From Spirochaetia bacterium (GTDB lineage Bacteria > Spirochaetota > Spirochaetia > UBA9216), in assembly GCA_963675665.1 (NCBI GenBank), contig OY776510.1:1376001-1440000 (forward strand): a stretch of 64,000 bases of DNA, read 5' to 3'. A program made the translations under genes and the position numbers. The notes beneath the pieces were generated by a model. It did no database searches, was not told the DNA's origin, and saw only the letters and a list, made by a program, of their open reading frames with translations. Of the stretch, positions 42,194 through 60,570 are shown piece by piece. The first letter of the stretch is position 1; each line of letters opens with the position of its first letter.

Positions 42194-43735
42194 GTGAGCA
42201 ATCCTGAAGTAAAGGCCGGTTTTCTAACCAGAATTCTGTCAATTCTGTCAAGAGCATCGGATCCTGAAAGGGAAAAAAAGCGTCAGCTTAAAGATGTATA
42301 CAAACAGCTAAAGAATCATAAATACAAGTTTTACAAGCCAAAAACCGATGAAGCGCTCGCTGCTCTCGCCAAATTATTTTATGATATATATATAATTGCA
42401 GGTCCCGCAAAAATACTTCTCGATCATGCTGAAGCTTCTGTTGTTTTAAAAACAATTATCATTGAAAATTCATTTTCCGAAAATCAGAAAAATATCAGAG
42501 CGTCATTCGATGATACCGAAATCAGGGAAGCGGTTAAGGCCTCCGGAGGCAACGTAAAAAATGTTACCGAAGAGCTTAAATCAAATCTTGTAAATTTTTT
42601 CTCTATATTTGACACTGAAAAAGTTCGTGAAATAAACGCAACCTATAATCTGATGACAATCTTTCTGGAATTTATATCTTTCGATTATTACTTCTTTCTG
42701 AGGAAGTTTGATTCCAGGTTTCCGGAAAATGATTTTACCTATAATTCCAAATTTGAAGATATAAACGGTGAATATATTGTTGAAGATCTGAAAGATTTTC
42801 TTGTACTGATACCTTTTCTTGAACTTGATGCTTCCTGGGACTCCCTGTTCGACGTCCTCTCTTCCTATAAAGGCGCCGAACTGATGAACCGCAAGGACTG
42901 GCAGAAAATCCTTCGAAGAATCCGGGATGTTCGTCAATCCAAAATTCTTGAGCTCATGATCAAGGCAATTGATCAGGATCCTGCATACGCATACAGGGTG
43001 CAGAGGCCCAACAAGCATATTGTAGAAGATTATCTGAACAAGTTGAAAAGCCAGGTTGAACTCTCAATACAGAAGATCCTCAAGGAGCAGAGAACCAACA
43101 AAATTGACAGTCTTGCCGACAGAATTTTCGGAACGCATGCAATCTCAAGAATGAAATATTATACCGAAAAAGCCAACCTGGCTTTCGCCAAAAAAATGCT
43201 CGGAGGATATATATATATCGCGCCGATGAATTATCTGAAGGCGTTTCTGGTTGATTTCTGCAAAAAGGATATAAGAGAAATCAGCGATGTTCTTCTTATC
43301 AGGGGCAAGTGGACTACAAATATCAGTTCACAGCAGCTTTCCGAAGCCTTCTACGGACTGATGTCGACAGCAGAAGAGTTAATTACTTTTGATGAAAAAC
43401 TGTCTGAAGAAGGTGTGCGGGGCAGCGAGATAACAAAACTTCTGAAACGCCGTGACTCCGATAAAGCAAATATAACGCTGCTTCGAAAGCAATTAAAAGA
43501 GATTAATGATGATGCGCTCAGATTGATTAATACTACCGGGGTCCATCTTGTATCTATTGCAAAGAGTTTCAAGCTTGTTATTGAAGATTATCAGAAAAAA
43601 CCTCATGAATTGCTTACAAACTGGAAAGAGATAGAATCAATAATTGAAGGCGGAGTAGTGCCAAGGATGTCCGACATTTACAGGAAATGCTATTATTTTA
43701 TCCAGCTGCTTCAGTTTTACAACAAGAGCAAATAG
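42194..43735 (+). CDS. Spirochaete-type conserved protein (DUF5312-like)
   Basis: DPEREKKRQLK, FDYYFFLRKFD; helical; recognised by recall only. Confidence 0.65.
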   Translation: MSNPEVKAGFLTRILSILSRASDPEREKKRQLKDVYKQLKNHKYKFYKPKTDEALAALAKLFYDIYIIAGPAKILLDHAEASVVLKTIIIENSFSENQKNIRASFDDTEIREAVKASGGNVKNVTEELKSNLVNFFSIFDTEKVREINATYNLMTIFLEFISFDYYFFLRKFDSRFPENDFTYNSKFEDINGEYIVEDLKDFLVLIPFLELDASWDSLFDVLSSYKGAELMNRKDWQKILRRIRDVRQSKILELMIKAIDQDPAYAYRVQRPNKHIVEDYLNKLKSQVELSIQKILKEQRTNKIDSLADRIFGTHAISRMKYYTEKANLAFAKKMLGGYIYIAPMNYLKAFLVDFCKKDIREISDVLLIRGKWTTNISSQQLSEAFYGLMSTAEELITFDEKLSEEGVRGSEITKLLKRRDSDKANITLLRKQLKEINDDALRLINTTGVHLVSIAKSFKLVIEDYQKKPHELLTNWKEIESIIEGGVVPRMSDIYRKCYYFIQLLQFYNKSK

Positions 43736-43736
43736 C

Positions 43737-45743
43737 TTATTCAGTAAAATCGCCGAGGCTTGTATCGCCGACCGGTTTTTTAAATCCGGAAAAAACGACC
43801 GCAATTATCACGCAGTTAACTACCGAAGCGGCTGCGAAAATATTCCACTCCGGAGCTCCGGATGCAATGCTTCCGACGAATGAATAAAGTTTCAGGCTGA
43901 TAGTGTAGAGTTTTTCATCGTTCAGAAATAAAAGCGGCGCCATAAAACTGTTCCAGGCACTTATAACCGCCGTCATTACCGCGGTAGTTATAACCGGCCT
44001 GGACAGCGGCAGAATTATCCTGAAAAGGTATGCACCGGCCGGTTGTCCCTCAAGCAGGGCGATGTCGCGAAATGCCCGGGGCATTCGGCCCAGCCAGGCT
44101 GTTATTGTAAACATCGAAAAAGGAATACTGTGATATATCGAAATTATTATCAGTGGAACGTATGAATTGACCAGTCCGATTCGCTCAAATGAAGAATAAA
44201 GCGGTATCAATGAATGCATGCCGCCTGTTATGCTTAAAATCTGAATAAAGGTAAGCGCGGCTATTGTGGTTCCCCTGCCCCGACTGTTGAGCCATACTGC
44301 CGCCGGAAAGCATACGATTGGAACCAGTAAGCCTGTCAGTCCGGAAAGGATAATTGTGTTTCTGAAGTACAGCATAATGTTTTCTTCCAGAAACACAGTT
44401 TTAAAGCTGTTTAACCCGGCATGTGGAGGCAACAGACCGTCGATGTAGCAGGCGCTTACACCGGAAAAGCTCATCCAGATCAGAAAATAAAGAAGGGCGG
44501 CAGAGCTGATAATAAGAAAGAGAGATGAAAAGGTTGAAAAGCCGAGATTGAGGCTGCCGAGCAACGGAGAATTTATGCTCCGGGCAGTTCCAAAAGAGCT
44601 GTTTCTGCCTTTTTTCCGACAGCAGTACATGAGCGTAAAGACTGCAGGGAAAATCCCCGGATTGAAACCGGCGAGGAAACTGGTTTTAGCAATACAGAAA
44701 ACAATCCAGAGGCCGTGAATTATAACCGCCGCTCGGAAAAAGCGCTTGTTTATGAATCCTGTAAGATACAGTGCGGCCGGAACCAATCCTGCCTTCCGGG
44801 AGAATATTATCTGCAGAGCAGCTGTAATTATAATCAGGAATTTGAATTTTCTGTCGGCGCTGAAATTCCTGTTTTTGGTTACGTACCAGATCAGCATAAG
44901 CAGTATAACGATGCCTGCCATAATAACGGAGTAGGCGGACGATATCCCGTAATCGTCGGTGTTGTTGAAAACATCGAAGAGGAATGTATCCATTGTTGTT
45001 GTGGCTCCGATAACATATCTTTCGGTTATGCCTGAAAGAAGTGGCGGACCGCCTGATGTCATAAGAAAAATAAGGGTGAATTCCTTGAACCCTTTGATAA
45101 AGTTCAGCACTGCCATGACAATCAGCGAAGTTTTAATTTGGGGCAGATATATATGGTAGGCAATAATTCCCGTACCCGCTCCGTCAAGAACGGCCGCTTC
45201 AATACAGCTTTTTGATATTTTTTTAAGCGCGCCGTGAAGCACAAAAGCGGTAAGAGGAACTGTCATCCAGATGTTGACAACCATACAGCTGAAGAATCCG
45301 GCAATCGGGTCTGTCATCAGGTTGGCTTCTATTCCGAAGAGGGTTGTCAGAACGGAGATTCCACCGTTTCCGTGGATTATTGCCCGCCACAGCGGAACAG
45401 CTATATAAACCGGTATCCCCCACGGAACAAGAAGCGCTGCGTAAATAATATTTGAAAATCTTTTTCTGCCCGATAATGCAAGGGCAATTATAAAACCGAA
45501 AAAGATGCTCAGAAATGTGCTTAGTACCGCCCATAAGGAGGTTATATTAAGGCTGTAACCGAACCCGGCATCGGCTCCGAGATAACGGAAATTATCCAGC
45601 CCGGCAAATGTCCGAATGCCGTATGTGTCGTGAAAAAAGGAAGTTGTAAGCGCTTCAAAAAAAGGAGAAATTCCCGCCGCTGTTATGACCAGCAGGGCGG
45701 GAATGATAAAGTATATTTTTACATTGAATTTATATTTACTCAA
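43737..45743 (-). CDS. Fused CUT1 ABC permease (MalF-like plus MalG-like domains)
   Basis: GLDNF, EAAVLDGAG, TSGGP in the first half; IALLEG, AWNSFMAP in the second half. Confidence 0.88.
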   Translation of the reverse strand: MSKYKFNVKIYFIIPALLVITAAGISPFFEALTTSFFHDTYGIRTFAGLDNFRYLGADAGFGYSLNITSLWAVLSTFLSIFFGFIIALALSGRKRFSNIIYAALLVPWGIPVYIAVPLWRAIIHGNGGISVLTTLFGIEANLMTDPIAGFFSCMVVNIWMTVPLTAFVLHGALKKISKSCIEAAVLDGAGTGIIAYHIYLPQIKTSLIVMAVLNFIKGFKEFTLIFLMTSGGPPLLSGITERYVIGATTTMDTFLFDVFNNTDDYGISSAYSVIMAGIVILLMLIWYVTKNRNFSADRKFKFLIIITAALQIIFSRKAGLVPAALYLTGFINKRFFRAAVIIHGLWIVFCIAKTSFLAGFNPGIFPAVFTLMYCCRKKGRNSSFGTARSINSPLLGSLNLGFSTFSSLFLIISSAALLYFLIWMSFSGVSACYIDGLLPPHAGLNSFKTVFLEENIMLYFRNTIILSGLTGLLVPIVCFPAAVWLNSRGRGTTIAALTFIQILSITGGMHSLIPLYSSFERIGLVNSYVPLIIISIYHSIPFSMFTITAWLGRMPRAFRDIALLEGQPAGAYLFRIILPLSRPVITTAVMTAVISAWNSFMAPLLFLNDEKLYTISLKLYSFVGSIASGAPEWNIFAAASVVNCVIIAVVFSGFKKPVGDTSLGDFTE

Positions 45744-47166
45744 GAATTATCTTGACAACATTTCTGACGGCTTTTATTCCGTCCGGAATAAGCGCAGCAT
45801 CATTATCCCAGGCTACAACAAGCGGGAATTCATCTTCATCAAGATCTGATCCGTCGCCCTTGAACATCCCGATGATGACATCATTATTGCCGTCGAGCTC
45901 GGATGCGGCAAGAGCGATTGTATAACCGTCCGAAGCTTCAATTTTTACAGTTTCATATCCGCTGTATCTTTCCAGAAGCATATAAATCGGCATGCCCATG
46001 TAATCTTTAAGTTTTGTTTTCTTTTTATTCCACATTTCGACTACTGTGCGTGAGTTTGTAACCCCGGACATCAGTGTCTGGGCGTCCATTACCTCTGTGC
46101 CGGAGGTGCTTACAAGCGAGAGATTAAAATTCTTAAATGGAATATCCTTAATGATAATCTTTTTAACCATCCGGGCCGATACGTGTCCGGTGAAATTGGG
46201 ATTCTCCGGTCCTACTTTTACAAGTCGTATATATCCCGGATCTTCAGGCATATATTCGCCGTTTTCCCTGAATGCCAGGATCCAGTCGCCGTTTGAGTTA
46301 TCCAGAAGCTGTTCGCCGCTGTAGTTCATTGCATAGCCGTCCATGGCTTCGATGGTTATGCTCATGTCGGCCGAAAGATTTGTATATTCGTTTATCAGGT
46401 CGACTATCTTTACGCCGGCCCAGGTAGACTCAAATGTATTACCGTAGCTGTTTGTATAATTACCCTTGTCTTCAATATAATAATTCAGTTTTTCCAGCTC
46501 GCTGATTTTATATGATCCGGACTGTTCTCCAATCTCCAGTATCAGTTCAAAATCGTTGTTTTCAAGCGATACAGCTTCTATCGAAGCGGTAATTTCTGAA
46601 AGTTCTTTTACCCACAGCTGTCCGGAGACATTTCCGCAGGACATGGGTTTGATCTTCTCGCCGTTAACAGAGTCTGCTATGTAAATTTCATCGGCGGCGT
46701 GGTCAGCAGTGTTTATTGTAGCTGAATATCCGTCTGCTGCGGTCAGCGTAAGATCATAACCTGAATTCCAGAGGTCTTCCTTGAAAGAATAAGGCATTGT
46801 CGCATCGGCATCATCCACCATTGCTACAATTTTTACCAGAGGCATTGCCGTAACAGTCAGCATTTCGCCTTTTCTTTCGAACTGAAATTCTCCGTAACCG
46901 GAGGCCGGATCTTCTTTCCACTTTTCAAAGTTGGATTCCCATACTTCATCAGCTCTTGCGCCGCTGACATTTATAAGCCAGCCTTCGCCCTTGGGTGTTG
47001 CGTGTGAAGTATCGTCAATTTCCGAAATCTCGGCAGTTTTTGCCTCCTCCGATGAGACCGTTTTTGATGTAGTTGAGTTTTGGTCGGTTGCTGTTGCACA
47101 GCCGCTGCTGAGCAGAACAGCCGTAACAAGCAGAAGCATCAGTACTGATAAAATTTTTTTCTTCAT
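45736..47166 (-). CDS. Lipoprotein with three molybdopterin-oxidoreductase (sulfite oxidase/MsrP fold)-like repeats
   Basis: Lipobox SSG-C. Repeats carry AADGY, AMDGY and ASDGY, WAGVKIVDL/YMGMPIYML, ILAFRENGE..GYIRLV, and end in WVKELSEI, ARMVKKI and VRNVVKI. Confidence 0.7.
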   Translation of the reverse strand: MKKKILSVLMLLLVTAVLLSSGCATATDQNSTTSKTVSSEEAKTAEISEIDDTSHATPKGEGWLINVSGARADEVWESNFEKWKEDPASGYGEFQFERKGEMLTVTAMPLVKIVAMVDDADATMPYSFKEDLWNSGYDLTLTAADGYSATINTADHAADEIYIADSVNGEKIKPMSCGNVSGQLWVKELSEITASIEAVSLENNDFELILEIGEQSGSYKISELEKLNYYIEDKGNYTNSYGNTFESTWAGVKIVDLINEYTNLSADMSITIEAMDGYAMNYSGEQLLDNSNGDWILAFRENGEYMPEDPGYIRLVKVGPENPNFTGHVSARMVKKIIIKDIPFKNFNLSLVSTSGTEVMDAQTLMSGVTNSRTVVEMWNKKKTKLKDYMGMPIYMLLERYSGYETVKIEASDGYTIALAASELDGNNDVIIGMFKGDGSDLDEDEFPLVVAWDNDAALIPDGIKAVRNVVKIILE

Positions 47167-47196
47167 AATATCTCCTACAAATATTTCCAGGGGTTT

Positions 47197-48687
47197 TCAG
47201 AAGTCCCGTTCTTCCATGTTTTTATCTACCAGGGTTTGAGTCTGTTTTAATACCTGGTCCGCCGGCAGTTTTCCGGAAATTGCAAATCTCAACATTTTCC
47301 ACATGATGTTTTTATAAACTGAATAAGCTTTGTCGGTCGGAATAATGACCCCGTCGGACGCGCTTATGCTGAGTGTTTCATAAAACGGATTTGTCTCTTC
47401 TGCAGTCAGCCATGCTTTCTCAAGGGCCGGCAATTTGGCTGTTTCGGATGTAAAACGCTGTTGAACCCCAATTCCCGTCAGGTATTCGATTAACCGGCGC
47501 GCTCCTGTTGTATTGTGTGAACGTTTTGAGATCGCAAAAGCTTTGAAATCAAGCAGCGGAGAAACCCTGATGCCTGTTTTATCGTTTACAGGAAGAGGCG
47601 CTGTTTCAAAAGGTATGCCCAGCTGTGTAAAATGGGGAATGCTGTATGATGCACTGATAATCATTGCCGTCTCTCCGGAAACAAAAAGAGAAGTCATTGC
47701 ATCTCTTTCCATCGGCTGCATAAGCTTGTTGTCCTGAAGCTCAAGGATGTATTCGAGCGCATCAAGCGTCGGTTTGTCGTCGATCAGTATCGAACCGTCG
47801 GATTCGACAAGAGTCTTTTTGCCGAATGCGAATTGAAACGGAATAAGAAATGACGCCGAGTATGAATTCCAGGCGGAAGGTATTTTTCCGTTTTGCTTAA
47901 CATTTTCACATGATCGTTCAAAATCGGAAAGCCGCCAGTTATTGTCAGGACGCGGGACAAGCTCGGGATTGTAGAAGATCATCTGTGCGTCATAATAGAA
48001 AGGAATTCCCCACAGTTTTTTATCAAGAGAGAATGCATCTATTCCCTGTTTAAATAATCCTTCTGTCGCCATGAAATCAAGATTCTGGATGCTTCCCGAG
48101 CGTGCCAATCTGTCGATGTAGCTTGACTGAACCATTATCACATCAGGAACACTGCCGTTAGCCTGTGTTGTCGATATAAGCTTTGAATCAGGTTTTGATA
48201 CTTCTACAATTTTAATATCGATAGAATGCAGATCCCCATAGCGCCCGATCTCGTCTCTGAGCAGTGAAATGCCCTCCCAGTTTACCCATATTTCAAGAGG
48301 ACTATATTCAAGTGTTTCGCAGTCAAGGTTGACGGATTTTATATTTGTATAAAGCCTGTTTTTGTAAAGAACAGACCAGCTGCCGTCTGTAGAAACCAGA
48401 TAGTGTTTTGACAGATTGTCGCCAAGGTCAGGATCGACAAGTTTTATGCGGCTGTCCGGGTTGTCCGAACCGAGAGAAAGGGTCCATGCTTCGTATACTG
48501 CCGGAAAAAGTTCGTCAAGGGAAATTCCGGTCATAACAGTTCCGAGAAAGGGGATAGGATATGATAACGACTGCAACTCGGTATTGCTGAATTCTTTCCA
48601 AATGGAATTGTTTACCGAGAACGATACTGCGTAGATATTAAGTGTAATAAATACAGCCGTGACAACAAGAACGGCCCTTTTAATCAC
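47197..48687 (-). CDS. MalE-like solute-binding protein with an N-terminal extension
   Basis: VPDVI, GIPFYY..FYNPELV, FVSGETAMII. GTG start (VIKRAV) follows SD GGAAAGGAAG. Confidence 0.8.
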   Translation of the reverse strand: MIKRAVLVVTAVFITLNIYAVSFSVNNSIWKEFSNTELQSLSYPIPFLGTVMTGISLDELFPAVYEAWTLSLGSDNPDSRIKLVDPDLGDNLSKHYLVSTDGSWSVLYKNRLYTNIKSVNLDCETLEYSPLEIWVNWEGISLLRDEIGRYGDLHSIDIKIVEVSKPDSKLISTTQANGSVPDVIMVQSSYIDRLARSGSIQNLDFMATEGLFKQGIDAFSLDKKLWGIPFYYDAQMIFYNPELVPRPDNNWRLSDFERSCENVKQNGKIPSAWNSYSASFLIPFQFAFGKKTLVESDGSILIDDKPTLDALEYILELQDNKLMQPMERDAMTSLFVSGETAMIISASYSIPHFTQLGIPFETAPLPVNDKTGIRVSPLLDFKAFAISKRSHNTTGARRLIEYLTGIGVQQRFTSETAKLPALEKAWLTAEETNPFYETLSISASDGVIIPTDKAYSVYKNIMWKMLRFAISGKLPADQVLKQTQTLVDKNMEERDF

Positions 48688-48689
48688 CT

Positions 48690-48815
48690 GCACTTCCTTT
48701 CCAAACACGGGAGGCCCTGCTGTTTCCGGCAGAACCCTTCGATCTCCGTCCATCGAATAGCTGATATTTTTAAAAATAAAGCGAATTCTACAGGAATGAA
48801 GATTCGGAAGATATA
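48690..48815 (-). ncRNA. Moco/Wco (molybdenum/tungsten cofactor) riboswitch, P3-less form
   Basis: Minus strand reads CTTCCGAATCTTCATTCCT...ATGGACGGAGATCGAAGGGTTCTGCCGGAAACAGCAGGGCCTCCCGTGTTTGGAAAGGAAG. It shows the AGGG-stem-GAAA-stem-GCCTCCCGTRTTTGGAAAGG hallmark of the moaA-type RNA, with P1 covering the SD. Confidence 0.8.
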
Positions 48816-48827
48816 ATTATCGAATAA

Positions 48828-48856
48828 AGTTTAGCCTCTCACTATTAAAAGGTCAA
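48828..48856 (-). promoter_or_regulatory. Sigma70 promoter upstream of the riboswitch
   Basis: TTGACC(48851-48856)-17-TAAACT(48828-48833). Confidence 0.65.
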
Positions 48857-57426: not shown

Positions 57427-58791
57427 ATGAAAGGGTTTTTTAAGAAATTGATTCTGGCGTCTGTTCTTATGTTCCTGTTTCTCCTGCCCTGTTTCGGCGG
57501 AGGAGCCCAGGAAAGCGATCAGGTTGTTTTAAAGGTGATTGCCGAAATGCATAATCCTACATTGGCACTTGAAAAGCAGCTGCCGGAATTCGAAAAGCTT
57601 ACCGGAATCAAGGTTGAACTGGAATACGGTCCCATGGATTCCGTCGTGCAGAAAGAGTTGCTTGCTCTTCAGGCGGGAACAGCGGAGTATGATGTGATTT
57701 CTGCTCCGTTTCAGTTTATCGGAAGTTTCGTGGAAAATGACTACATTCTGGATATTGATGACATGATGGCTGATCCGCAGAATGCAATTGCCGGATTCAA
57801 TGCTGACAACATGGTTAAAGGCATGTGGGATGTAGCTGCAAACTGGAAAGGAAGCTATTACGGTGTGCCTTCGAACACCTGTATACAGATCCTTGCCTAT
57901 CGTAAAGATCTTTTTAAGGACCCGGCCGAAGCTTCCGCTTTCAAGGCAAAGTACGGATATGAGCTTGAAGTGCCCGACAACTGGAAAGCATACAAAGATA
58001 TCGCTGAGTTTTTTACACGGAGTAAGGGTGAAAAGCTTGCCGGTGAAGTTTTAAGCCAGGATTTCTACGGAATCACTTTTTCCGGGAAAAGACATGACGC
58101 GGCAGTCTGCGACTGGCAGAGCATTGCATGGTCTTTCGGCGGCGGTACTTTTAACGATTCAGGCGATCTTGTAATAGACAGTCCTGAAAATGTAAAAGCC
58201 CTAAGTTATATCAAAAGCCTGATACCATTTGCTCCTCCCGGAATAAGCATTAATACATGGGATGAGAAAACCACACAGTTTCAGCAGGGGCTGGTGGCAA
58301 TGACGATTATTTTCAATGATTGCGCGCCGGCAATTGAGGACATTGAGAATTCGCGGTCAGCAGGTAAAATGGGATATGCTGTTGTTCCGGTTGAGCAGAA
58401 AAGCATCGGTGGAAATTACGGCGCATGGGCATTCTATATTCCAAAGGATGCCAAAAACCCGGAAGCTTCATGGAAATTTTTGCAATGGGTAAGTACTCCC
58501 GAAGTGCAGAGAAATATTGTAACCGAAGGCGGAGGATTTCCAACTTTACAGTCCCTGTATAAAGATGAGGAGTTCAAATCTAGCATTCCTTACTGGGAAG
58601 GGTCTTATGAAGCCTACCAGATTTGCTCTTCCAAACCAAGGATTCCCGAATGGAATGAAATTAATAATGTTATTATGCTTCATCTTTCCAGAGTGTATAA
58701 TGACGAAGTTGCTCCTGAAGAAGCGCTTTCCAGCATGCGGAAAGAAATTAATGTCATAATGGAAGGAAAGCTGCCAATATCATATAAATAA
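57427..58791 (+). CDS. CUT1 sugar ABC substrate-binding protein
   Basis: Signal peptide FGGGAQE; FEKLTGIKV, YRKDLF, AWSFGG, PRIPEW. Confidence 0.9.
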   Translation: MKGFFKKLILASVLMFLFLLPCFGGGAQESDQVVLKVIAEMHNPTLALEKQLPEFEKLTGIKVELEYGPMDSVVQKELLALQAGTAEYDVISAPFQFIGSFVENDYILDIDDMMADPQNAIAGFNADNMVKGMWDVAANWKGSYYGVPSNTCIQILAYRKDLFKDPAEASAFKAKYGYELEVPDNWKAYKDIAEFFTRSKGEKLAGEVLSQDFYGITFSGKRHDAAVCDWQSIAWSFGGGTFNDSGDLVIDSPENVKALSYIKSLIPFAPPGISINTWDEKTTQFQQGLVAMTIIFNDCAPAIEDIENSRSAGKMGYAVVPVEQKSIGGNYGAWAFYIPKDAKNPEASWKFLQWVSTPEVQRNIVTEGGGFPTLQSLYKDEEFKSSIPYWEGSYEAYQICSSKPRIPEWNEINNVIMLHLSRVYNDEVAPEEALSSMRKEINVIMEGKLPISYK

Positions 58792-58859
58792 TGTATTCAC
58801 ACCCGCGGCAGGATATTGTCGCGGGGATTTATCCTTATCTGTCACCAGGAGATTCATAT

Positions 58860-59750
58860 ATGTATAAAAAGCTGAAAAGGGAGAGAACTGTTGCTCTGTC
58901 CTTTCATCTTCCTGCGATGATTATTCTTTTAATCATTACATTTATTCCGCTTTTGCTGAATATTAAGCAGAGTTTGTTTGATTTTAAACTTGCTTCTCCG
59001 GGAAGCGTTGATGATTTTATCGGATTTAAAAATTATGTAACAATATTTCATGATGTCAGGTTTTACAAATCCCTGGGCATTACCTTTATTTTTGTTCTTG
59101 CAGCAACCATTTTTGAGTTTCTGCTCGGAGCTGTTATTGCAGGTCTTTTGGATCAGGTTACAGTCGGAAGAAAAATATTATCGGCCCTGTGGATTGTTCC
59201 CATGACAATTGCGCCCCTTGTAGTGGGGTTGATGTTCAGTTTTATACTAAATCCGCAATTCGGGCTTTATGGATTTTTTCTTGATGTTACGGGTTCTTCA
59301 TTATCCAGGGCTCCTTTAAGCTCTTCCGTTTCAGCAATGATTGCCCTGATAATAACTGATATCTGGCAATGGACGCCCTATATGATTCTTATGCTTTTTG
59401 CCGGGCTTAAAACCCTTCCTTCCGAGCCTTATGAAGCGGCTGATATCGACGGCGTAAGCGGGTTCCAGAAGCTGAGGTATATAACCTTTCCCATGATGAA
59501 ACCGGTGATAACCGTTTCACTTATTCTCAGGGGTGTAGAGGCGTTTAAGGTTTTTGACAAACCGTATCTTCTTACGGGAGGAGGCCCCGGTTCCGCTACC
59601 GAGGTAATAGACCTTTATACTTATCGAAAGGCTTTCGTTGATTTTCATTTCAGTTACGCGTCGGCCCTTTGTCTGATTCTCTTTGTTCTTTTGCTCTGCT
59701 TTGGAATTCTTTACTGGTTCTTTTTTATGAGGAGGCAGTATGAAATATAG
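58860..59750 (+). CDS. CUT1 ABC permease (MalF-like)
   Basis: FIGFKNY, DIWQWTP, YEAADIDG, TGGGPG. Confidence 0.92.
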   Translation: MYKKLKRERTVALSFHLPAMIILLIITFIPLLLNIKQSLFDFKLASPGSVDDFIGFKNYVTIFHDVRFYKSLGITFIFVLAATIFEFLLGAVIAGLLDQVTVGRKILSALWIVPMTIAPLVVGLMFSFILNPQFGLYGFFLDVTGSSLSRAPLSSSVSAMIALIITDIWQWTPYMILMLFAGLKTLPSEPYEAADIDGVSGFQKLRYITFPMMKPVITVSLILRGVEAFKVFDKPYLLTGGGPGSATEVIDLYTYRKAFVDFHFSYASALCLILFVLLLCFGILYWFFFMRRQYEI

Positions 59751-60570
59751 ACTGGTAAGAAAACAGAGGATAAGGATAATCACGGCAATATTAGTTGTTC
59801 TGCTTCTTGTTTATCTGGTGCCCTATATCTGGATGATTTTAACATCGTTCAAATCAAGGCTGGATATTTTTGCAATGCCACCCAAAATTGTTTTTAAGCC
59901 TACATTTGACAATTACAGGATTGCTTTTGTAGATAAACACTTTCTTGAAAATGTTAAAAACAGTTTTATAGTGACATCATTAACGGTGATGTTTTCCCTT
60001 CTGATAGGGCTTCCTTCGGCATACGGATTTTCGAGGTTCAGGCTGAAAGGAGATAAAGTGTTATTTTTTTATCTTCTGGGAACACGGTTTACTCCTACCA
60101 TTGTTCTTGCCCTGCCTCTTTATTTCATAATGACCAGGCTGAGACTGCTGAATACTTTTGTCGGAATTATTGCGGCCCACACAGCTTTTAATATTCCTTT
60201 TGTTGTATGGATGATGAAAAGTTTCTTTGATTCGGTTCCGCGGCAGGTTGACGAGGCTGCCATTGTAGACGGCTGCGGCTGGTTTTCCGTCTTTGTAAAG
60301 ATGGCTCTTCCTCTTACCAAAAGCGGAATAGCTGCAACCGCTGTTTTCTGTGCTATAAATTCATGGAATGAATTTCTGATGGCCCTGATTCTTACCGGCG
60401 GCAAGACGGCCACACTTCCGGTCGCAATTCCCAGGCTTTTGACCCCGCAGGGTACAGCCTGGGGACAATTGACGGCAGTCGGTTCGGTCGTAACAGTTCC
60501 GGTAATAATCTTTGCGTTTCTGGTGCAGAAACACATGGTCCGCGGATTGTCGAGCGGTGCGATAAAATAG
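59740..60570 (+). CDS. CUT1 ABC permease (MalG-like)
   Basis: TSFK, DEAAIVDGC, SWNEF, QKHMVRGL. Confidence 0.92.
   Translation: MKYRLVRKQRIRIITAILVVLLLVYLVPYIWMILTSFKSRLDIFAMPPKIVFKPTFDNYRIAFVDKHFLENVKNSFIVTSLTVMFSLLIGLPSAYGFSRFRLKGDKVLFFYLLGTRFTPTIVLALPLYFIMTRLRLLNTFVGIIAAHTAFNIPFVVWMMKSFFDSVPRQVDEAAIVDGCGWFSVFVKMALPLTKSGIAATAVFCAINSWNEFLMALILTGGKTATLPVAIPRLLTPQGTAWGQLTAVGSVVTVPVIIFAFLVQKHMVRGLSSGAIK

Follow-up and report, generated by a model that had tools for sequence, protein, structure and literature searches.

The locus described here raises a single question: what does a transporter of the maltose type take up when its genes stand behind a riboswitch for the molybdenum or tungsten cofactor (Moco/Wco)? 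It lies in a DNA stretch of 64,000 nucleotides from a Spirochaetia bacterium of the lineage UBA9216 (assembly GCA_963675665.1, contig OY776510.1, positions 1,376,001 to 1,440,000), which as a whole is called the window. On the minus strand of the window a promoter-like site, a riboswitch and the genes for a solute-binding protein, a lipoprotein and a permease follow one another in this order (Table 1). A gap of 30 bp separates the first two genes and the last two overlap by 8 bp; neither the open reading frames (ORFs) of the window nor the domain scan revealed a gene for an ATP-binding cassette (ABC) ATPase within the operon or beside it. All of this, from the promoter to the absent ATPase, had been read from the letters in the original prediction and was recovered in this study. 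Overall, our analysis suggests, with moderate probability, that the operon encodes a cofactor-repressed ABC importer for an external pyranopterin cofactor, Wco being the most likely ligand, or else Moco or a very close derivative.

Analysis of the leader region revealed a match to Rfam family RF01055, the Moco RNA motif expected here, with 60.8 bits (E 3.8e-12), the gathering score being 36. The match covers the full model (positions 1-135 of 135) and is the sole Rfam match in the 64-kb window. The P3 hairpin of the model is deleted, with 11 nt at the P3 site, and the Shine-Dalgarno (SD) sequence of the first gene, 6 nt before GTG 48687, is part of the 3' strand of P1, GGAAAGGAAG. According to Regulski 2008 (PMC2408646), representatives lacking P3 are associated with tungsten-cofactor metabolism, a ribosome-binding site inside P1 implies repression by the ligand (an OFF arrangement), and the signal of the Escherichia coli riboswitch requires MoeA, that is, the metal-bearing cofactor. 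Following the class assignment of that study, the operon riboswitch would be of the proposed tungsten-cofactor (Tuco) type, and by the precedent of E. coli moaA it would bind the cofactor and switch. Among the riboswitches of the same genome, the tupABC- and AOR-linked copies likewise lack P3, and the modABC-linked copy has 31 nt at this site. A promoter-like site is found 7 nt upstream of the riboswitch; it is its position that argues for this site, since 12 such sites occur in the region against 9.5 +/- 2.7 in shuffles and they are not enriched.

The lipoprotein is 476 amino acids long, and its signal ends in LLSSGC. Three A-x-D-G-Y motifs (residues 143-147, 274-278 and 411-415) occur in it, one in each of three segments of about 135-150 residues. 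Domain 2 matches PF00174 (Oxidored_molyb) with an E-value of 1.7e-9 (38 bits against a gathering score of 24; residues 241-347, profile positions 63-168 of 169), and the first 62 positions of this profile are unmatched. Alignment to the profile of domain 2 with hhalign gave probabilities of 84% for domain 1 (E 7.6e-6) and 96% for domain 3 (E 6.7e-9). In a Foldseek search the AlphaFold2 model of the protein (pLDDT 81.9) matched sulfite oxidases, sulfite dehydrogenases and structures of the putative pterin-binding protein PruR with a probability of 1.0. A second structural alignment placed PruR 7kom on domain 2 (Z 15.8, root-mean-square deviation (rmsd) 2.5 Å, 126 of 134 residues, model residues 206-340) and PruR 7kos_B on domain 3 (Z 15.1, model residues 326-476), and structures of the sulfite oxidase family matched the fold at Z 12-15. 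Since domains 1 and 3 align to domain 2 by hhalign and resemble these structures in fold, they can be counted as domains of the same sulfite oxidase/PruR nature. The sulfite-oxidase-like lipoprotein with three AxDGY repeats that had been predicted is thus borne out.

The standard annotation of this protein is oxidoreductase. Cofactor-loaded periplasmic members of the sulfite oxidase family are exported folded by way of a twin-arginine (Tat) signal. Among 23 family members aligned over their full length, no cysteine that could serve as molybdenum ligand is conserved, the lipobox cysteine C23 being the sole conserved cysteine. The signal peptides are lysine-rich; an RR pair was found in one of the 23 members, in a context that is not Tat-like. 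A periplasmic molybdenum or tungsten enzyme was rejected as an explanation on the lack of both the cysteine ligand and a Tat-type signal. As modelled, the lipoprotein is an array of three PruR-like domains and not an enzyme of the sulfite oxidase type. PruR itself is a periplasmic protein with the sulfite oxidase fold but without the molybdenum-ligating cysteine (Fuqua and colleagues 2024, PMC11194511). The same study describes how PruR holds pterins between a tyrosine and a tryptophan with a hydrogen bond from an asparagine, the contacts being N102, Y104 and W160 in Agrobacterium tumefaciens numbering. In a weak profile match (E 0.053, domain 2 profile) the D-G-Y of the lipoprotein aligns with N-D-Y of 7kom.

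For the binding protein, two starts are possible, the likely GTG 48687 and an in-frame GTG at 48693, so that the protein has about 496 amino acids (498 when read from 48693). Matches to SBP_bac_8 (1.9e-22) and SBP_bac_1 (9.3e-19) both begin only at residue 159. In its AlphaFold2 model (pLDDT 92.6) the core is comparable to maltose-binding proteins (TM-score 0.80-0.85, about 20% identity), and an extra beta-rich domain occupies residues 23-127 of the 498-residue reading. The original prediction had taken the whole system to be built from domains like those of molybdopterin oxidoreductases; this was found for the lipoprotein and not for the N-terminal domain of the binding protein, which aligned with lipoprotein domains 2 and 1 at hhalign probabilities of only 0.5% and 0.25%. 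The order of secondary-structure elements is alike in the models of this domain and of the lipoprotein domains; with profile comparisons insignificant and only the element order alike, homology between them is not claimed. A complex prediction of binding-protein residues 22-498 with lipoprotein residues 57-476 scored 0.60 against 0.47 for the control, a score from which nothing is drawn.

The first half of the permease (668 amino acids) most resembles MalF and the second half MalG/GlcU. The presence of a cluster-B MalE-like binding protein and two BPD_transp_1 domains fits the CUT1 class. The NCBIfam equivalog matches of binding protein and permease are all far below their cut-offs (MalE, 71.6 against 291), and the C-terminal half of the permease gives a weak modB match (TIGR02141, 48.6 bits against a cut-off of 182.6). 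One clear MalK-type gene (OB_MalK) was found elsewhere in the genome (G000:2,073,5xx), and in two related loci (L072 and L094; L and G numbers denote loci and genomes of this study) a MalK-type ATPase is the divergent neighbour of the operon. A shared MalK-type ATPase encoded elsewhere is the putative energising partner.

A search with the lipoprotein family yielded 164 clusters at E <= 0.001 among 8000 candidates scored; the family is small, and the organism names, where given by the source, are all spirochaete. A total of 79 loci were found in a scan of species-representative genomes, all with spirochaete titles (Oceanispirochaeta, Marispirochaeta and Sediminispirochaeta among them) except for one Bacteroidales-labelled and one Thermotoga-labelled metagenome-assembled genome (MAG). 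The three genes keep together as a module. Upstream of the lipoprotein gene, 72 of the 79 loci have the binding-protein gene, and six of the seven others lie on contigs that stop short of it. The permease gene is downstream in 75 loci and upstream on the other strand in L078; among 64 loci that show both halves of the permease, 62 have them fused. From the 11 riboswitches of the window's own genome a covariance model was made, which was then used on the related loci. Consistent with the expectation that homologous operons would keep the riboswitch, one ending where the binding-protein gene starts was found in 59 of 65 loci whose upstream DNA is readable, and the P3 site has only 11-13 nt in 53 of 58 module-linked riboswitches. 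Four of the six exceptions belong to genomes without any RF01055 match (G411, G412, G413 and G432); a further exception, L036, encodes a binding protein that at its N-terminus does not differ from the one of L065 in any of the 60 residues compared. Beyond the three genes, no conserved neighbour was found in the flanks of 24 loci (93 ORFs). The flanking genes vary by lineage: an AOR gene adjoins the module in L069, genes for glycoside hydrolases or sugar kinases are not conserved in its vicinity, and a GGDEF/EAL partner is not conserved next to it, a single GGDEF-EAL gene lying 1.5 kb beyond the permease in L035. Within the order of the window's own genome the module is present in 9 of 11 genomes, and the two genomes without it are 81% and 86% complete.

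Some loci depart from the common layout. The Sphaerochaetaceae-labelled loci L031, L032, L034 and L065, which belong to the four genomes without RF01055 named above, encode binding proteins with a shortened N-terminal domain; three of these four genomes have MoaA and MoaC matches and no MoeA match. In the Thermotoga-labelled MAG (L078, 3-5758) a riboswitch of 85.9 bits still precedes the binding-protein gene. In L096 (3050-4407), on a 4.5-kb contig, a riboswitch match of 28.7 bits stands directly before an ORF that matches lipoprotein domains 2-3 only, with no binding-protein gene between them, possibly a shortened variant.

The gene content of carriers was surveyed in the genomes of 50 of the 79 loci, picked for long contigs before any results were obtained, the other 29 being left out. 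AFOR_C, the mark of AOR-family tungsten-pterin enzymes, was found in 49 of the 50 genomes and RF01055 in 46. Markers of cofactor synthesis and of tungstate binding were found far less often: MoaC in 24 genomes, the C-terminal domain of MoaA in 23 (13 over the curated cut-off), MoeA in 20 (none being found in 30), and a protein like TupA (the query being TupA of the window's own genome) in 18. MoaE was dropped as a pathway marker, as it is a poor one, being matched in 7 of 50 genomes and scoring no more than 31.7 bits in the genome of the window itself. None of MoaA, MoaC and MoeA was matched in 26 of the 50 genomes. Carriers with tungsten or molybdenum enzymes and an incomplete moa/moe pathway, which the original prediction had proposed to look for, thus make up about half of those surveyed.

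All 26 pathway-lacking genomes have AOR matches, 1-9 each (weakly in G437), and 25 of them have no match to a TupA-like protein, the exception (G430) being a fragment at a contig end; 17 of the 20 genomes with both MoaC and MoeA have such a match. The module is preceded by a riboswitch in 24 of the 26 genomes (one is without it and in one the contig is cut), and by coordinates this riboswitch is the only RF01055 match of the genome in 11. In five larger pathway-lacking genomes (G412, G423, G425, G408 and G446) no modA over the cut-off was found, and MoCF_biosynth was found in G412 only, in a frame of 425 amino acids. Among 15 RF01055 stretches from seven pathway-lacking genomes, one is the module's own (L104) and the other 14 precede ferredoxin and AOR genes (5), aldehyde dehydrogenase genes (8) and a MobA-like fragment (1). 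The ferredoxin and AOR riboswitches of these genomes (L098, L102, L105, L107 and L109) have an insert of 17-35 nt at the P3 site, and those linked to the module and to aldehyde dehydrogenases have 11-13 nt there; these are two riboswitch types, possibly with different ligands or logic.

As a control, a phylum sample of 400 genomes was used, 102 of which have AOR. The 70 of these that are at least 91% complete were kept, which dropped six AOR-positive genomes at exactly 90% completeness and 26 below. With the domain-2 profile, the module was absent from 70 of 70 AOR-positive controls, and the same query recovered 10 of 10 known positives. The profile of the whole lipoprotein had found it in 0 of the 400 genomes before the retest with the domain-2 profile; the module really is rare in the phylum sample. 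MoaC was found in 67 of the 70 controls, and of the three without it, two gave no more than weak AOR matches. AOR without the pathway is therefore found in 26 of 50 module carriers versus at most 3 of 70 non-carriers, a strong pattern but not statistical proof, as relatives are not independent.

The following mechanism is proposed. In the mRNA leader, binding of the cofactor would form P1 and hide the SD of the first gene, so that the operon would be made only when intracellular cofactor is low. The lipoprotein, exported unfolded by the Sec/lipoprotein route, would capture a labile pterin outside the cytoplasm with its three PruR-like domains and shield it. It would then hand the pterin to the MalE-like protein, which may use its extra N-terminal domain for docking to the lipoprotein or to the permease, and the binding protein would deliver it to the fused MalFG-like permease, presumably powered by the shared MalK-type ATPase. 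Where moaA, moaC, moeA and tupA are missing, the module would be the sole supply of cofactor for AOR-family enzymes. The window's own genome is no auxotroph, because it encodes moaA, moaC, moaE and two moeA; auxotrophy was accordingly rejected as the explanation of the window's own copy. There the module would be salvage beside synthesis, and import would spare synthesis.

That the ligand enters from outside is suggested because a riboswitch of the MoeA-requiring kind is kept before the module, often as the sole copy, in genomes without MoeA. A simpler pterin might be imported instead, either a Moco precursor (cyclic pyranopterin monophosphate (cPMP) or metal-free molybdopterin) or neopterin or monapterin, which the cell completes or uses; we consider this unlikely. 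It would agree with the closest structural match, PruR, which binds small pterins in a shortened pocket (PMC11194511), and with cPMP being the most stable intermediate (Regulski 2008, PMC2408646); a precursor would be usable where the full pathway is present, and one genome (G430) keeps a MoaE match without MoaA or MoaC. However, 30 of the 50 genomes have no MoeA and 26 have none of MoaA, MoaC and MoeA, so that no known step of tungsten or molybdenum insertion is found there and a precursor importer would be useless for want of moeA in the pathway-lacking genomes, 25 of which also lack a TupA-like tungstate-binding protein. A pterin unrelated to Moco would leave the Moco/Wco riboswitch in 59 of 65 loci unexplained. 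That the module is an unusual tungstate or molybdate importer, a fourth beside ModABC, TupABC and WtpABC with sulfite-oxidase-like domains that bind the oxyanion, seems very improbable. Moco riboswitches do commonly head oxyanion transporters, including tupABC and modABC of the same genome, sulfite oxidase active sites bind oxyanions (sulfate- and phosphate-bound structures are among the Foldseek matches), and the modB match of the permease points the same way. Against this, the modB match falls far short of its cut-off, the binding protein belongs to the MalE-like kind (SBP_bac_8/1) and not to the ModA (SBP_bac_11) or TupA (PBP_like_2) type, and the genome already has riboswitch-controlled tupABC and modABC. 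In the 26 pathway-lacking genomes a tungstate importer would be useless, because without moaA, moaC and moeA tungstate could not enter the cofactor; the module is kept there nevertheless.

An ordinary CUT1 importer of a carbohydrate or other carbon source that belongs to the cofactor-using regulon, its substrate passing through AOR or aldehyde dehydrogenase and the lipoprotein being a redox or sensing accessory, appears improbable. Binding protein and permease have their nearest matches among maltose, maltodextrin and glucose systems, the lipoprotein is annotated as an oxidoreductase, and the other riboswitch-controlled genes of the pathway-lacking genomes are those for AOR and aldehyde dehydrogenases, so that cofactor users do occur in the regulon. 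The matches to the sugar systems are, however, far below their cut-offs, the surroundings of the module contain no conserved gene for a glycoside hydrolase or sugar kinase, and the lipoprotein, with its Sec/lipoprotein signal and no cysteine ligand, is not a cofactor-loaded enzyme by the usual route, its fold partner being a pterin binder. A sugar importer would account for neither the riboswitch nor the pterin fold, and the cofactor supply of the 26 AOR-bearing genomes would also be left unexplained. Because the readings as oxyanion, precursor or sugar importer and as enzyme fail in these ways, import of the finished or nearly finished cofactor is the most economical explanation. The claim of the original prediction, a CUT1-class importer of the pterin cofactor or a precursor that is repressed by cofactor, is thus supported by RF01055, by the PruR-like fold, by the 59 of 65 loci and by the 26 of 50 genomes, and is qualified by the synthesis genes of the window's own genome.

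Several points weigh against import of the finished cofactor. The pocket of PruR for small pterins is described as too short for Moco (PMC11194511), and for this reason room for the entire cofactor cannot be deduced from the PruR-like fold. Significance at the sequence level for PF00174 was reached by domain 2 alone, and searches of the Protein Data Bank with the profiles of domains 1 and 3 gave rows at chance level only. Free Moco and Wco are very labile, and an extracellular pool is uncertain. With moaA, moaC, moaE and two moeA at hand, the window's own genome does not need the module for survival. AOR genes also stand behind riboswitches with the SD in P1, which fits poorly with a simple logic of repressing supply. 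In four of the five pathway-lacking genomes checked, proteins of the PF00384 family are possible other users of the cofactor, and with MoaE being a poor marker the presence of molybdopterin synthase cannot be judged. The controls are from other families, and shared ancestry could yield part of the contrast. Completeness figures cover two of the 50 module-bearing genomes. Where present, tupA, moeA, moaA and moaC are clustered together within about 7 kb (e.g. G403:C6:700133-706981), so that a single missing contig would mimic the loss of all four. This concern is countered by pathway-lacking genomes that are large or nearly complete: G412 is a single chromosome of 3.29 Mb, the two sampled contigs of G423 together make up 3.73 of 4.2 Mb, and G408, which belongs to the window's own family and by contig number and coordinates is apparently the same assembly as G454, is 97% complete. 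The support as a whole comes from sequence, predicted folds and gene content, and the ligand is putative.

With these points considered, a wider proposal can be put forward tentatively, and we rate it as somewhat short of an even chance: a sizeable group of free-living spirochaetes would be natural auxotrophs for the tungsten or molybdenum cofactor and would take the finished, metal-bearing cofactor from their neighbours through this module, which would be the first dedicated prokaryotic importer of Moco/Wco, with the lipoprotein as an extracellular chaperone. It is generally held that Moco and Wco are too unstable to travel, and bacteria with a need for them are taken to synthesise their own. 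In full-text literature on uptake, transport, salvage and auxotrophy of Moco and molybdopterin (subscription journals and the supplements of Regulski 2008 lying outside its scope), no bacterial importer is described. Besides the riboswitch study, this literature documents dietary uptake of Moco only in nematodes that feed on bacteria, with no transporter named; one preprint speculates in one sentence on molybdopterin uptake by type 11 secretion systems; and a term search of a 2026 review of pterin signalling returned no mention of ABC transporters, riboswitches or spirochaetes. The module joins two elements of known kind, the PruR fold and an ABC importer under riboswitch control, and may be the first known bacterial importer of Moco/Wco.

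Comparison with known systems shows where the module is alike and where it differs. PruR of Agrobacterium, Vibrio and Klebsiella (PDB 7kom, 7kos/7kou, 7kp2 and 7rkb) is likewise exported and has a cysteine-less sulfite oxidase fold of about 130-150 residues. It matches the lipoprotein at Z 15-16 with an rmsd of 2.5-2.8, and its N-x-Y pterin contacts align with DGY in the weak match given above. PruR is, however, a single domain of Proteobacteria that is paired with the diguanylate cyclase-phosphodiesterase DcpA and acts in signalling (PMC11194511), whereas three tandem domains are found here on a lipoprotein of Spirochaetota, in an ABC importer operon with a Moco/Wco riboswitch. The sulfite oxidase family (SorA, chicken sulfite oxidase, YedY/MsrP; PF00174) shares the domain 2 match and the fold with the lipoprotein, which differs in lacking the first 62 profile positions, the metal-ligating cysteine, a dimerisation or haem domain and the twin-arginine signal. 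Unlike MalEFGK2 and other CUT1 importers, with which it shares the MalE-like binding protein, the MalF- and MalG-like permease halves and, putatively, an ATPase encoded elsewhere, the module has an extra N-terminal domain, a fused permease, a lipoprotein with three pterin-fold domains and control by a cofactor riboswitch. The RNA is of the same family as that of the Moco/Tuco regulon (moaABCDE, modABC, tupABC and Mo/W enzymes), of the P3-lacking, tungsten-linked type with the ribosome-binding site in P1; the passages of Regulski 2008 on downstream genes name those for biosynthesis, oxyanion transport and enzymes, and a MalE-type importer with domains of the pterin fold is not among them.

A parallel in logic is the salvage of vitamin B12. 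The proposed module would share with it a cofactor riboswitch that represses an importer, an extracytoplasmic lipoprotein that captures a scarce cofactor, auxotrophs that depend on producers and a cofactor-independent stand-in enzyme, here aldehyde dehydrogenase, behind the same riboswitch class. B12 salvage involves a B12 riboswitch, the transporter BtuCD-F and riboswitch-controlled B12-independent isozymes, and its transport is proven. Proteins and ligand are unrelated in the two systems, and for the module transport is a proposal. According to the abstract of the BtuG study, BtuG is a surface lipoprotein of vitamin B12 uptake.

If import is true, Moco/Wco would be a traded 'vitamin' in anoxic microbial communities, like B12, joining the cross-fed cofactors of anoxic sediments and guts, and the riboswitch would report imported instead of home-made cofactor. 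The module would be a concrete, testable machine for the movement of cofactor from cell to cell. Metabolic reconstructions would change, as a MAG that has AOR but lacks moa genes could still be complete. The PruR fold, itself newly recognised, would extend from signalling to transport, and the lipoprotein could be of practical use in stabilising the cofactor or delivering it.

The coordinates of the features of the locus are collected in Table 1.

Table 1. Features of the riboswitch-controlled operon, with positions in the window.
Feature	Position	Strand	Evidence
Promoter-like site, TTGACC-17 nt-TAAACT	48828..48856	(-)	9/12 consensus positions
Moco/Wco riboswitch aptamer RF01055, P3-lacking	48678..48821	(-)	60.8 bits, E 3.8e-12, model 1-135
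Solute-binding protein: Sec signal, extra beta-rich N-terminal domain, MalE-like core	47197..48687	(-)	domain matches and model
Lipoprotein, three tandem PruR-like (Cys-less sulfite-oxidase-fold) domains (predicted)	45736..47166	(-)	profiles and fold
Lipoprotein domain 1, residues 57-196, AADGY	46579..46998	(-)	hhalign to domain 2: 84%, E 7.6e-6
Lipoprotein domain 2, residues 197-345, AMDGY, DPGYIRLVKVGP	46132..46578	(-)	PF00174 1.7e-9; PruR 7kom
Lipoprotein domain 3, residues 346-476, ASDGY	45739..46131	(-)	hhalign to domain 2: 96%, E 6.7e-9
Fused MalF-like and MalG-like permease, 668 aa, two BPD_transp_1	43737..45743	(-)	domain scan

A total of 11 RF01055 matches were identified in the window's own genome. 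The genes behind them are tupABC, modABC, ferredoxin with AOR, an aldehyde dehydrogenase, purine/GTP genes, five type-II ABC importer operons and the operon described here. The five importer operons (L009, 1-5544; L011, 1-6350; L013, 4802-9000 minus; L016, 1-5675; L017, 4954-9000 minus) all contain Peripla_BP_2 and ABC_tran, and three contain FecCD. A radical-SAM protein (750, 748 and 307 amino acids) occurs in three of them; the first gene encodes an SBP_bac_11-like protein in L009 and a Big_5 protein in L017. These operons may represent another uptake route related to molybdenum or tungsten. In L010 (1-6004) the riboswitch stands before genes for an adenylosuccinate-lyase-like protein, IMP dehydrogenase and, after a gap, GMP synthase, which form the route to GTP, the precursor of the cofactor.

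P3-lacking riboswitches precede genes for NAD(P)-type aldehyde dehydrogenases in the window's own genome (L015, 7468-9000, minus) and in pathway-lacking relatives (L099, L100, L101, L103, L106, L108, L111 and L112). By analogy with metE in B12 salvage, this aldehyde dehydrogenase may be a tungsten-independent stand-in for AOR that would be off when cofactor is present.

Next to the operon, a DUF5312 gene (window 42194-43735, plus strand) is convergent with the permease gene and ends 1 nt from its stop codon. The closest relatives (L019 and L021) have this neighbour as well, together with VanZ and aminotransferase genes. Another CUT1 set, of ordinary appearance, was found 9 kb off (window 57427-60570, plus strand), with an SBP_bac_1 protein of 454 amino acids and two separate BPD_transp_1 permeases; it is likewise without an ATPase gene and adjoins genes for a ROK regulator and an aminotransferase.

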